Of a DNA stretch of 64,000 nt, positions 341 to 63,410 are shown one piece after another. Each line of letters opens with the position of its first letter. Position 1 is the stretch's first letter. The notes beneath the pieces are model-generated. The model was given only the letters and a program-made list of their open reading frames with translations. It searched no databases and was not told where the DNA came from. The stretch spans positions 36,022,001 through 36,086,000 of the forward strand of contig OZ024747.1 of assembly GCA_964016885.1 (NCBI GenBank), read 5' to 3'. This DNA comes from Eledone cirrhosa (taxonomy: Eukaryota). A program made the position numbers and the translations under genes.

Positions 341-584
341 TAAATAAAACCCTTTTTGTACGACCGAGCACGTTATTATTCACACTTTCACTACTATTAC
401 TCCAAGAATAACCTGCATGGGAATTCTTGCAAACTCGCTACCTAACTAACGGAATCTCTTGCTGAATCAAACAACGCCGCACGTTAAAAATACCCACAGT
501 ACAGAGTACTCACAACCTCTAACTGGATTACCCAAAATGATAACTTATTATCCTATATATATATATATATATTTTTTTTTTTTA

Positions 585-2060
585 AATAATGGAGAGAACA
601 ATAATATTTATGAATACATATATATTTAATGGCTGACAAGTTGTTTCAAATACTCCACAGTAAGAATGGACATAGATGCTGAGATATCGAATATAAAGCG
701 ACAGATGTACATAAAAAATGAACAAATATGTGTGTCAGTATTATCATTAGAGCCTAAAATCTGTTTACAAATATTAACTCATAAATCAGAACATATCACC
801 GAAATGAAAAACCTTTAAATGTGTAATGTTGATGTTAAACGGTTGGAAATGAAAATACGTTATAGCAGCTATTTCGTTTTGGTTTGAAATTGAAGAAGTA
901 AATAACATTTAAAGGGAGATCATTAATGAAAAAAGGAGATAATTAAGTCAAAACAAGTGAATGATTCGAAAAAAGAGAAAAGGAAGGAGATGAATAAAAG
1001 GTTGAGCCGATTTTAAGGACACATTTAAAATAAAGAATGATAAGTTTAGTGAAGAGGAATAGAAACTATACCCAGTTATTAATAGGGAGATGTAAGACAG
1101 TTCTTTAGGAAAGGGTAAAACAGTTGAAACATCGAAACAAAGTAATAATAAATTTAGTAGGGGTTAGAGTGTATTAGACCAATTGAAATACTAAAAGATA
1201 ATTACATTACATAGGGGATATATGTTCGAAGGTTTATGTAGGTTATAAAGTGTAATGTAATAAGAGGTTTTATTATAAATGAAAATTAAAAAATAGTAAA
1301 TAACGGAATGTAAAATAGATAGTTAAAATATTATTTTAAAGGGGATACGTTAAAAGAAGAAAAGTGATCAAAAATATAGTATAGGATAGGAAAAAGTAAA
1401 ATCAGGAAAGAATGAGGTTTAAAAAGGATAGGAGAGGGACCGACATTTAGTAAAGAGGTGTAGGTAAAGTGCATAAATGTAAAATTAATAAAAGCAGAGT
1501 AGAGGATTTAGAAATAAAAGATCTTACACATTCCTATAAATAACTGGGTATAGTTTCTATTCCTCTTCACTAAACGTATCATTCTTTATTTTTAAATGTG
1601 TCCTTAAAATCTTCTCAACATGTTATTCATCTCCTTCCTTTTCTCTCTTTTAGAATCATTCACTTTATGTTTGACTAAACAGCAATTCTTAATTATCTCC
1701 ACATTTCATTAATGATCACCCTTTGAATGTTATTTACTTCTTCAATTTCAATGCAACACCAAATGGCTGCTATAACGTTTTTTTCATTTCCAACCTTTTA
1801 ACATCAACATTTCACATTTAAAGTAGGTTTTTCACTTGGGTGATATGTTCTGATTTATGAGTTAATATGTTATAAATACTTTTTTTCCGGCTTTGATCAT
1901 AATTTCTGACACACATATTTGTTCATTTTTAATGTACTTCTATCGTTTTATATTCGATATCTCAACATCTATGTCCATTCTTACTGTGCAGTATTTGAAA
2001 CAATTTGTCAGCCATTAAATATATATGTATTCATAAATCTTTGCTGTTCTCTCCAACATT
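585..2060. mobile_element. Old head-to-head palindromic insertion of a PLE-like 3' region
   Basis: ~585-1088 is the reverse complement of ~1531-2060 with many substitutions; begins next to (TA)n; both arms contain a decayed HHR. Confidence 0.75.
1889..2013 (+). ncRNA. Decayed hammerhead with ~100 nt stem II insertion (mirror copy ~630-755, minus strand)
   Basis: ggct-[TTGATCA here, CTAATGA in mirror; consensus CTGATGA]-t-aatact...agtatt-t-GAAA-caa(t/c)ttg-TC-agcc. Confidence 0.55.
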
Positions 2061-2361
2061 TTAAATATGATTTTTAGCTCTGCTTATAATACGATTGTTA
2101 GCAATCTCTCTTTCCATCTAATCATATGACACGCTATTCTAACAACCTATATACATTGAGCACACTAATCCTCTCTCTACTGGTTAGTAATCTGGATAAC
2201 AAATCACTTTTCTCTCCTCCTGATTAGCTTACTTACTTTTTACACACACACACACAGACAGACACACACTCTCTCTCTCTCTCTCTCTCTCTCTCTCTCT
2301 CTCTCTCTATATATATATATATATATATATATATATATATATATATATATATATATATATA

Positions 2362-3018
2362 TCATCATCATCATCATCATCATCATCAGGTTTAGCGTCC
2401 GTGTTCCACGCTTGCATGGGTTTGGACGGGGGTTTTCCCACTTGAGGCAAGAGTGGTTGTCTTGCTCGCATAGGACTGTCTGGCGGGTTTTCTACAGTTG
2501 GATGCCCTTCCTAACACCAACCACATTTACAGTGTGGGGCTGGGAGGTTTTTACCGTGTTGCCTACACGGCCACATTACAGCGTGGACTGTCTGGCGGGT
2601 TTTCTACAGCTGGATGCCCTTCCTAACACCAACCACATTTACAGTGTGGGGCTGGGAGGTTTTTACCGTGTTGCCTACACGGCCACATTTACAGCGTGGA
2701 CTGTGTGTTTTTTGTCGTGACACCTACACTATCTCATTTGTTTCGGCCTGGATGTTGTGGGACCAACATAACTGTACATTGAAAGGGGCGGTGTGGATGG
2801 GGTGGAGGTGGTGGGACGGGGGGGGGGGGGGGGGGGGGTTGATAGAGATGCCTACTGACTGTAGTAGGTTTTTACTTTGTATTTAGGTAAGGCGGGTCTT
2901 CTCTATTACTGAGTACCGCCAAAGGTCTCGGTCCAGTGACATTGTCTTGGAGAGGTGTAAGCGTGTGAGGTCGGAATTTATCAGCTCGTCCCATGTTTTT
3001 CTGGGTCTGCCTACTCCT
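2362..3018 (-). mobile_element. Non-autonomous RTE-type retroelement fragment with (TGA)n tail and internal ~113 bp tandem duplication
   Basis: (CAT)n at 2362-2388; ggatgcccttcctaacaccaacc motif, similar to RTE-derived repeats, occurs twice (~2473-2585 and ~2586-2703). Confidence 0.5.
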
Positions 3019-61763: not shown

Positions 61764-61864
61764 ATACCAGTTTTGCTTAATGAAGGAATTAATGCGAATC
61801 AATTAGTTAGAGCACTCTGACTAATTGGTTTTTATTAATTCCTTCATTGAGCAAAACTAGTATT
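61764..61864. repeat. ~100 bp imperfect hairpin
   Basis: ccagttttgcttaatgaaggaattaat...attaattccttcattgagcaaaactag. Confidence 0.7.
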
Positions 61865-61932
61865 TGTTTGATTCCCTCATATATATGACACTTCTTCTAC
61901 ACACACACATATATGAATATATATATATATAT

Positions 61933-63410
61933 ATAAAAGTTTACATATATATATACATACATATACATATACGTGTTTTGCAACTGGTCACTTTGTGGCT
62001 CAATGAAAATTTAATAAATTAAACAATCAGAGCTATATATCATAAAACATGTCTATAGAATCACAAGATAAAATACATACTATTTCCTCTCCCAATTAGC
62101 ATAATTAACCATATAAAAAATCTAATAGACCAGGCTATAAGAATGAGGCTTCTATGAAGAAATCTCCGACAAATAACCGAAACTAGCGCTTCGCGTCGGC
62201 CGTAGCGGAATATTTATCGAATATTTCGACAGCGTAATCGCCCAGATATAGTCAACTAAACAGAATTAGGTGTAAAATAAACTAGGAGAAAATAGAATAC
62301 ATTTAAATACCTCTACCATGGTTTCGTCCGTATTTTGAGTTTTCCAATAATTATGTAATAATTATATAAACTCGAGCGCCGGATTTATCAGGTAGCTCGC
62401 TCTTATCTAGACACTAAATTTTCCAAAGTGATCGCGCCAGAAATTGATTTCAAAATGGCTAAAAATCGTGACGTAGTCGCGGTCAGGTTGGAAGGGTCCT
62501 GGTAGTTGCTTACGACTGGTGGCATTTTTGCTAGAAAGCACAGCACAATACAGCCAAACTTGTATCTCAACCTAATGGGAGATTATTACATATAAAAGTT
62601 TACATATATATATACATATACATATACGTGTTTTGCAACTGGTCAGTTTGTGGCTCAATGAATATTTATCGAATATTGCGACAGCGTAATCGTCCAGATA
62701 TAGTCAACTAAACCGAATTATTTGTAAAATAAAGACATGTTTTATGATATATAGCTCTAATTGTTTAATTTATTAATTTTTCATTCAGCCACAAAGTGAC
62801 CAGTTGCAAAACACGTATATGTATATGTATGTATATATATATGTAAACTTTTATATGTAATAATCTCCCATTAGGTTGAGATACAAATTTGGCTGTATTG
62901 TGCTGTGCTTTCTAGCAAAAATGCCACCAGTCGCGAGCAACTACCACACCCCTTCAAACCTGACTGCGACTACGTCACGATTTTTAGCCATTTTGAAATC
63001 AATTTCTGGCGCGATCACTTTGGAAAATTTAGTGTCTAGATAAGAGCGAGCTTCCTGATGAATCCGGCGCTCGAGTTTATATAATTATTACATAATTATT
63101 GGAAAACTCAAAATACGGACGAAACCATGGTAGAGGTATTTAAATGTATTCTATTTTCTCCTAATTTATTTTACACCTAATTCTGTTTAGTTGACTATAT
63201 CTGGACGATTACGCTGCCGAAATATTCGATAAATATTCCGCTACGGCCGACGCGAAGCGCTAGTTTCGGTTATTTGTCGGCGATTTCTTCATAGAAGCCT
63301 CATTCTTATAGCCTGGTCTATTCGATTTTTTATATGGATAATTATGCTAATTGGGAGAGGAAATAGTATATATTTTATCTTGTGATTCTATAGACATGTT
63401 TTATGATATA
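61933..63410. mobile_element. Retrozyme-like ~657 nt HHR unit arranged head-to-head, each arm longer than one unit
   Basis: ~61933-62008 repeats at ~62590-62662; plus arm starts (62733) and ends (~63410) with agacatgttttatgatat; HHR 63051-63136 cttc-CTGATGA-atccg...cggac-GAAA-ccatgg-TA-gagg; (TA)n on both sides; no long ORF. Confidence 0.8.

Follow-up and report, generated by a model that had tools for sequence, protein, structure and literature searches.

We analyzed 64,000 nucleotides of the Eledone cirrhosa genome (assembly GCA_964016885.1, contig OZ024747.1, positions 36,022,001 to 36,086,000), referred to as the window. The window is AT-rich (GC 0.32), has abundant (TA)n tracts throughout, and carries insertions of Penelope-like elements (PLEs) and of non-coding repeats with the same insertion footprint. 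The initial annotation listed 18 inserts with one layout: (TA)n, an inverted 3' end, a junction, a forward 3' end, and usually (TA)n again. All 18 listed coordinates start beside a (TA)n tract, and self-comparison of the window found inverted arms at 17 of them. The remaining site, 34835, is a single antisense arm, and the palindrome there is its neighbor at 35394-36041. Most sites also have (TA)n at the far end. It is absent at 16234, which adjoins another PLE, and at 18500, and it is displaced at 585 (by 246 nt) and at 34130 (where it comes after a third copy). The annotated tail-out orientation was borne out in the pairs examined. Each family has two fixed 3' ends, a short end (S) and a tailed end (L) about 35-165 nt apart, and nearly every pair combines one of each. 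The inserts are listed below with their reverse transcriptase (RT) frames and hammerhead ribozyme motifs; class names are assigned by motif.

573-2260: old inverted insert (585); its arms, 584-1097 and 1548-2061, are 86% alike; (TA)n adjoins the left end, while on the right the next TA is 246 nt away
3295-3650: inverted pair; tail of about 60 nt on the left, TA flush on the right; arms without a hammerhead
4013-4389: inverted pair; tail of about 90 nt on the left; core resembles a hammerhead by eye
4417-5178: inverted pair of a family with a non-coding head-to-tail unit of about 630 nt (4416); short end e578, tailed end e614; hammerhead not found
5227-8870: pair of a young Neptune/Nematis-type PLE (5226); left arm shorter and tailed (63 nt), right arm longer and short-ended
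5364-5401, minus strand, and 8760-8797, plus strand: U3-A8 hammerheads of the 5226 insert
6483-7724, plus strand: frame in the 5226 insert with RT, CX4CxxC linker, and GIY-YIG; 413 amino acids, 5'-truncated
13390-16177: pair of a Neptune/Nematis-type PLE (13391); left arm long and tailed, 244-nt right arm short-ended and 99.6% alike; 265 nt separate the left end from a hammerhead-like motif
13976-15930, minus strand: frame in the 13391 insert with RT, CX4CxxC linker, and GIY-YIG-like domain; 5'-truncated
16234-16872: PLE stump pair; the left end is tailed, and the short right end abuts another PLE; templated insert at the center
About 16731-16772, plus strand: U3-A8 hammerhead of the 16234 insert
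18502-18830: hairpin of unproven origin (18500); arms 88% alike, TA on the left only, hammerhead not found
21020-21549: stump pair of an autonomous Hydra-clade PLE (unit about 3.3 kb); short end left, 164-nt tail right
About 21294-21328, plus strand: U3-A8 hammerhead of the 21020 insert
21570-22317: retrozyme-type 471-nt non-coding unit (21568); short end left, tail of about 70 nt right
21789-21831, minus strand, and 21985-22025, plus strand: canonical type I hammerheads of the 21568 insert
23558-23798: inverted pair of a repeated family with older copies (23559); short end left, 50-nt tail right; arms without a hammerhead
33520-34005: inverted pair with its tail on the left and its short end on the right; the U3-A8 hammerhead has an altered GAAA box, and a templated insert lies at the center
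34131-34821: inverted pair at 34131-34541 and a third, sense copy, with a hammerhead at 34652-34692, plus strand, in the third copy (34130)
34836-36041: single antisense arm at 34836-35374, then an inverted pair of the same family at 35394-36041; hammerhead not found
37149-48566: 11.4-kb pair of a young Hydra-clade PLE; left arm longer and tailed (134 nt), right arm short-ended
41034-43025, minus strand: Hydra-type frame, 5'-truncated, with RT, CxCX5C linker, GIY-YIG-like domain, and CxxC and CxH motifs
43160-44692, plus strand: shorter copy of the 41034 frame in the right arm of the 37149 insert
48604-49129: mixed-family tail-out pair; tailed arm of a 37149 relative and short-end arm of the 57437 family
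49338-49800: stump pair of an autonomous Hydra-clade PLE with a 3' region of about 1.8 kb (49341); short end left, tail of about 90 nt right
49388-49452, minus strand: hammerhead of the 49341 insert
57437-57829: stump pair of a Hydra-clade PLE; the left arm is short-ended (41 nt) and the right arm has an 86-nt tail; hammerhead-like motif with altered core
61936-63405: retrozyme-type non-coding unit of about 660 nt (61933); each arm just over one unit, tailed end left (98 nt), short end right
About 63050-63137, plus strand: hammerhead with a long loop II in the 61933 insert

The pairing of ends was counted in six families. One S and one L end were found in 82 of the 85 pairs with both outer ends defined: 13/14 in the 21020 family, 24/24 in the 5226 family, 16/18 in the 13391 family, 10/10 for the 471-nt unit, and 11/11 and 8/8 in two further families. 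The first five families gave 74/77 (p 5e-19 against 50%). Three more families scored by eye gave 14/15, 12/14, and 8/10. Eight pairs from the four fully tallied families had an undefined end and were omitted from the tally (L014, L018, L027, L043, L064, L159, L161, and L169; L-numbers label individual genomic copies fetched for family comparison). The arm extending further 5' ended at S in 28 and at L in 35 of 63 pairs (p 0.45). Twelve partner arms consist of tail only and have zero overlap with the other arm (L049, L038, L033, L143, L069, L074, L185, L190, L191, L251, L267, and L281). There was a weak sign that tail-only arms accumulate at the S site. The free choice of the longer arm and the tail-only arms indicate that each arm started on its own.

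Shared variants suggest that both arms of a pair come from one source. Arms of the 21020 family share non-majority bases 21 times compared to 4.9 expected, with 7 private to one pair. The 5226 family adds 5 further pair-private shared bases, and its total, 33 versus 8.7 expected, is too high on account of the reference locus and indel columns. For a common variant of the 471-nt unit, the two arms match in 7/7 pairs. These variants fit either one RNA or two RNAs of one source locus. The arms meet at copy-specific junctions. Among 38 junctions, 12 have filler, some of it single-nucleotide polymorphism artefacts, and 2 lie in an internal TA tract; 18 of the remaining 24 show microhomology of 2-5 nt, compared to about 15% by chance.

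Arms extend past the hammerhead cut site. A circular RNA template was considered and is not supported; 5' ends in the family with the unit of about 660 nt cluster at e502-553, not at the cut site e284. Many arm 5' ends of this 61933 family (L323-L342) fall at e502-553 of the preceding unit, which suggests a transcription start near that position and a linear template.

The initial annotation named (TA)n as the target, and the flanks agree. TA is present at both ends in 78/83 pairs. In 12 of the 14 pairs that are informative (69 are not), the tract interruptions on the two sides fall on the same strand (p 0.006), as they would in halves of an older tract. These data argue that (TA)n is mostly a pre-existing target. 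The alternative that the element makes the (TA)n is disfavored by the same-strand interruptions (12 versus 2), though not at every site. Read-through sequence shares 1-7 TA-alternating letters with the flank at 16 ends, and at least 3 at 13 of these 16, which fits pairing of a cut end with the RNA. Empty sites were sought in paralogous hosts by comparing 109 insertions with 1.5 Mb. The five matches comprised three other PLE ends meeting at a TA tract, one spurious match, and L163, which is considered below. At the 15 of 63 joints listed, contigs of public sequencing runs showed no empty allele. The 35393 junction is crossed by a 113-nt contig that extends only 26 letters to one side, fewer than the 31 required, and this contig was not counted.

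Flanks are often the ends of other repeats, and 63 of 218 flanks match repeats that are mostly followed by TA. Elements of these families pile up in each other's TA tracts. At the short ends of the 16234 family (L278, L280, L281, L287, L288, and L290), a variable (CT)n run often precedes (TA)n; it is never seen at tailed ends. The RNA at the S start site of this family reads CTCT. The (CT)n may arise by telomerase-like repeated copying and may be a source of (CT)n(TA)n compound microsatellites.

The frequency of two-armed copies was determined by searching the genome with the arms of 12 inserts; 585, 3295, 4013, 33520, 34130, and 34835 were not among them. At least 40 matches were obtained for 11 of the 12. 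The 18500 arm matched only itself, and its status as a mobile family is thus unsupported. Two tail-out arms were present in 18/35 distinct loci of the 21020 family, 24/35 of the 5226 family, 19/29 of the 13391 family, and 13/18 of the 471-nt unit. The total is 74/117 sampled loci, or 70/113 without the window's own copies. This fraction is biased upward, because the fetched loci are those matching young queries best and each pair has two opportunities to be listed. These counts exclude repeat fetches of a locus and segmental duplicates (L030 and its third copy, L155), and they treat seven unresolved loci as non-pairs. The 37149 family had both arms, all tail-out, in 13 of the 23 loci among 40 matches, and some were full tandem units of 6.6-6.9 kb. 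The palindrome is thus the majority product in the sampled young families, as the initial annotation held.

A detector that calls inverted arms of at least 35 nt with one end flush to (TA)4+ found 16 structures in the window, whereas 3 x 60 kb (180 kb) of shuffled sequence gave none. Thirteen of the 16 are lopsided palindromes, flush on one arm with a tail of 33-246 nt on the other; two are flush/none, and the single flush/flush structure is an inner piece of the 37149 insert. Fifteen 10-kb genome stretches at chosen round coordinates (150 kb) gave 15 flush/tail, 7 flush/none, and 2 flush/flush structures. The density of lopsided palindromes is about 1 per 10 kb and extrapolates to 170,000-490,000 in the 3.0-Gb genome, a detector count that does not establish each structure as a PLE product. 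At this density the inserts may rank among the main sources of inverted repeats, and they will mislead the annotation of microRNAs and of miniature inverted-repeat transposable elements (MITEs).

How do these pairs arise? The initial annotation proposed that both ends of a cut could prime reverse transcription owing to the self-complementarity of (TA)n. Priming from both ends is favored over fold-back, but self-complementarity alone leaves the unequal S and L ends unexplained, and these ends call for two fixed start sites on the RNA. It is likely, on sequence evidence, that both (TA)n cut ends prime copies of the same template, one at S and one at L, and that the copies are joined by microhomology. 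The element protein would cut both strands of a (TA)n tract. A protein dimer would hold the RNA with one active site per start site, as the pairing rule and PMC11167929 suggest. The 3' ends of the cut (TA)n would pair with TA-like letters at the start sites, and one cut end would prime at S and the other at L. Each complementary DNA (cDNA) copy would stop at random, and the two new 3' ends would be joined by microhomology-mediated repair. Failure of one end to prime would give a single-arm insertion. Non-coding tandem units of 471, about 660, and about 630 nt that keep both start sites would be copied in trans by the same machinery. A more specific version is tentative, with somewhat less than an even chance: integration is programmed and two-ended, a dimer bound to one RNA makes a double-strand break in (TA)n and copies the RNA from both ends simultaneously, the tail is the spacing of the dimer's two start sites, and retrozyme RNAs hijack the dimer. 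If true, this would be two-ended integration without a classical second-strand step, with 170,000-490,000 lopsided palindromes in the genome.

The closest biochemical precedent is an anole PLE that, in vitro, cuts and extends both strands, uses two fixed internal RNA start sites, and is a predicted dimer (PMC11167929). The strict S/L partition and the target pairing take two-ended priming beyond that work. Several points weigh against it. The anole start site is the same for both strands and is not homologous to the cut DNA (PMC11167929). Exceptions to the S + L pairing exist: L017 (S + S), L146 (L + L with identical flanks), L065, L262, L329, and L331, although L146 looks like a later inverted duplication. 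Sampling was by best match to young queries, with two chances for a pair to be listed. L163 is a retrozyme pair with TA on both sides, and its host paralogues L183, L217, and L220 have no (TA)n there. The variants shared by the arms could stem from gene conversion between them. Finally, snap-back or templated junction inserts exist at 43006-43316 and in L023, L024, L018, L146, and L149.

These last structures are what a self-priming route would leave. According to this idea, proposed for an antisense template in the Discussion of PMC3846280, an antisense RNA or first cDNA folds at its 3' end, copies itself, and is resolved into the target. Fold-back predicts shared arm variants and junction microhomology, both observed, and a true 150-nt snap-back lies at the junction of the 37149 insert (43006-43316). 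However, it needs a constant end type on the longer, loop-bearing arm, and 28 S versus 35 L were counted. A folded copy cannot exceed its template either, yet 12 partners are tail-only and the tail is on the shorter arm in 28 pairs. Fold-back as the main route is therefore strongly disfavored and highly improbable; at junctions it is a side reaction. The inversion might instead arise in an extrachromosomal double-stranded intermediate that an endonuclease cuts at the S and L sites before integration. This would account for two precise ends per family and one-sided tails; the tail is ascribed to 'EN-mediated resolution' in PMC8557442 (sections 6 and 15), and the D. virilis endonuclease requires the tail for recognition (as cited in PMC11167929). 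It gives no reason for S + L pairing with independent arm lengths, the two ends of the anole element map to RT start sites in vitro (PMC11167929), and TA-like letters at the start sites match the target. We regard such an intermediate as unlikely.

Two independent RNA-protein particles from any source loci could each prime one end of a (TA)n break. Palindromic overlap would then need no strand displacement, and the window holds one mixed-family tail-out pair (48604-49129), to which L131 and L060 may be similar. Independent particles predict S + S and L + L about as frequently as S + L, whereas these were 3 of 85, and their arms should differ at the family polymorphisms that the observed arms share. 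Mixed-family pairs can also be explained as nested insertions without intervening TA. This route is very unlikely. The notion that the palindromes are assembly fold-backs or later inverted duplications has a negligible chance. L146 and L213/L214 do have identical flanks on both sides, as expected for a later inverted duplication. The arms of the pairs, however, differ by 0-30%, their outer ends are unequal, the flanks are not duplicated, and the junctions are copy-specific. The 18500 center is spanned without a difference by a 267-nt contig of public run X1, which may be the assembled sample.

In the mixed-family pair, the arms meet where both families share about 7 letters. Two RNAs at a single break could have produced the pair; alternatively, one insertion is nested in the other and the intervening TA has been lost. 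L131 and L060 are possibly also tail-out pairs of two families.

The layout is not new; it is published as typical of PLEs (PMC8557442 section 6; PMC3846280). PMC8557442 describes inverted 5'-truncated copies, often with a 30-40-bp tail at one end, notes that Hydra and Naiad insert at (TA)n, and regards the origin of the inverted structures as unresolved. The inverted pseudo-long terminal repeat (pLTR) is called typical of PLEs in PMC3846280 and given as a curation feature in PMC8969392; the available portion of PMC13282606 does not mention palindromes or ribozymes. The elements are new members of known PLE clades and retrozymes with a known layout, and what they contribute is quantitative data on how PLEs form tandem and inverted copies, a mechanistic question that PMC8557442 section 15 names as open. 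Self-priming (PMC3846280, Discussion) is the only explicit model we found, and the S + L rule, the free longer arm, and the tail-only arms argue against it. No paper on the S + L rule or on two-ended PLE priming was found in a literature search that covered subscription papers sparsely.

The inserts share with the PLEs of Arkhipova 2013 (PMC3846280) and Craig 2021 (PMC8557442) an inverted 5'-truncated copy joined at its 5' end, a tail at one end, partial tandems, microsatellite bias, and microhomology junctions. The tails here are about 35-165 nt compared to 30-40 nt in PMC8557442. Compared with the published inverted-pLTR PLEs, S + L pairing is counted here and near-strict, and arm length is independent of end type. 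Poseidon PAc of the green anole (Frangieh 2024, PMC11167929) and the inserts have in common two fixed internal RT start sites that define the tail, cutting and extension of both strands, and templates that continue beyond the point of hammerhead cleavage. PAc cuts ATT, its start site has no target homology, and no S/L strand partition is reported in the available text of PMC11167929. The inserts in the window, in contrast, target (TA)n, have TA-like letters at the start sites, and are S/L partitioned. For the PMC11167929 system, the prediction is that single product molecules start at S on one strand and at L on the other.

L1 twin priming involves two target primers, an inversion, and short junction microhomology; its second primer is used at variable internal sites and its arms do not overlap. 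In the inserts described here, each family has one fixed second site, and most pairs have overlapping arms; the insertions operate in the manner of L1 twin priming without being a case of it.

The PLE origin and the three coding inserts of the initial annotation were confirmed. RT/GIY-YIG frames, all 5'-truncated, lie at 6483-7724, at 13976-15930, and at 41034-43025 with 43160-44692. Pfam identified GIY-YIG in the 6483 frame (E 3.5e-7) and RVT_1 in the 13976 frame below the cutoff (E 1.6e-4); it gave no family for the Hydra frame 41031. Truncation makes the 41031 and 13973 proteins, suggested for cleavage assays, poor material. Several families have copies 99-100% identical, and intact sources therefore probably exist. 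An RT followed by a C-terminal GIY-YIG-like domain was read by motif in the 41034-43025 frame and in L032/L036. The CxCX5C linker and the CxxC and CxH flanking motifs, which define the Hydra clade (PMC8557442 section 11), are present without CCHH in the 41031 frame, L032, and L223. DKT and RWK motifs occur in the 21020-family frames L035 and L036; the 41031 frame is truncated before them. Sequence motifs thus assign the 41031, 21020, 49341, and 57437 elements to the Hydra clade. They resemble that clade (Craig 2021, PMC8557442 section 11) in the GIY-YIG-like domain, linker, DKT/RWK (21020 family), hammerheads, and (TA)n; the Hydra families here combine a hammerhead with (TA)n insertion (37149 hammerhead by eye only). 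Their units measure about 3.3 kb or 6.6-6.9 kb, and their 3' regions reach about 3.9 kb; these unit lengths exceed the 'generally <3 kb' of the clade, which is a tendency and not diagnostic. A CX2-5CxxC linker before GIY-YIG marks Neptune and Nematis (PMC8557442 section 6). The 6483 and 13976 frames have CX4CxxC, and L112 has GxKF and DKG motifs; these motifs place the 5226 and 13391 elements as Neptune/Nematis-type PLEs.

The linking of small hairpins to PLEs stands for part of the set. Genome searches showed the 21020 hairpin to be the 3' terminus of an autonomous Hydra element (about 3.3 kb) and the 49341 and 57437 hairpins to be Hydra 3' ends as well. The 16234 hairpin belongs to a PLE related to the 6483 protein (52-60% amino acid identity in other copies). 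A separate MITE-like class was rejected for these four, which are stumps of coding PLEs. The 21568, 61933, and 4416 inserts are instead non-coding tandem units. Those of 21568 (471 nt) and 61933 (about 660 nt) are head-to-tail with one type I hammerhead per unit, and their longest ATG frames encode 64 and 40 amino acids, respectively. Runs reach about 4 units in the 471-nt family, compared to just over one unit per arm in the other. These features indicate retrozyme-type repeats. Retrozymes are defined and linked to PLEs in PMC7229834 and bioRxiv 10.64898/2026.07.22.740005, and the head-to-tail non-coding units with one type I hammerhead each match the animal non-LTR retrozymes of Cervera and de la Pena 2020 (PMC7229834) and Li, Clavereau and Pollet 2026. 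The 471-nt unit lies slightly and the unit of about 660 nt clearly above the published 150-450 bp, a described range that is not diagnostic. Here it is the insertion footprint (S/L ends, inversion, (TA)n), rather than phylogeny, that links retrozymes to PLEs. The available parts of PMC7229834 and the bioRxiv paper do not describe this footprint. Its presence on non-coding hammerhead repeats is mechanistic support for retrozyme movement by PLE proteins.

The 4416 family has a GA-rich, non-coding tandem unit of about 630 nt with the S/L footprint (L344, L345, L356, L360, and L361). Its hammerhead descriptor score is at the null 99% level with no plausible hammerhead core, and it is classed, from its sequence, only as a non-coding tandem unit with a PLE footprint. 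It could depend on a hammerhead-less PLE such as Naiad. No coding partner of the 23559 family was seen among the fetched copies. Non-coding tandem repeats likely ride on PLEs.

All inserts had been described as hammerhead-bearing, which holds for 12 of the 18 at most. A type I descriptor that includes the U3-A8 core variant scored above the 99% shuffle level at 10: 5226, 13391, 16234, 21020, 21568, 33520, 34130, 49341, 57437 (with an altered core), and 61933. Core motifs with a palindromic helix III were recognized by eye only at 4013 and 37149. The descriptor found no hammerhead at 585, 3295, 4416, 18500, 23559, or 34835. A strict CUGANGA descriptor gave 4 matches and missed the U3-A8 motifs; with the variant there were 6, versus 0.1 in shuffles. 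The U3-A8 variant, used by several of the inserts, is described in PMC4209133, as are opposite-strand hammerhead pairs 100-700 bp apart. Rfam found nothing at the gathering score in the whole window. HH9 matched only below threshold, at 21772 and 21972, and most matches were sub-threshold microRNA models on hairpins and microsatellites, which are artefacts.

Two further insertions lie in the window.

3085-3267: insert additional to the 18; short-end arm and tail-only arm of the 13391 family, with (TA)n tracts on either side
16861-18470, plus strand: separate single-arm 5'-truncated PLE with an RT fragment and a GIY-YIG-like frame at 17109-17783, terminating at (TA)n

The 3' region of the 37149 element, about 3.9 kb, is TA/TG/CA low-complexity sequence (37600-40570 and 45140-48100) with arms 95-99% alike; with this Hydra element, microsatellite-like DNA is carried along and spread. 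Further palindromes, without an end flush to (TA)n, occur at 22969-23188, 50968-51936, 55518-55996, and 61763-61864, and those at 50968 and 55518 are one family with the right arm extended. Decayed PLE frames outside the listed inserts lie at 23899-25492 (plus strand), 31751-33445 (minus strand), and 63725-64000 (plus strand); two are Hydra-type and one is akin to the 16861 element. Broken frames at 9335-11850 (minus strand) contain a Pif1 2B helicase domain (Pfam E 1.4e-11) and are presumably a Helitron remnant. In L245, L254, and L265 of the 57437 family, another repeat breaks up the copy at an identical position, accompanied by a duplication of about 15 bases; that repeat is the family found in the window at 29379, 53333, and 57007.

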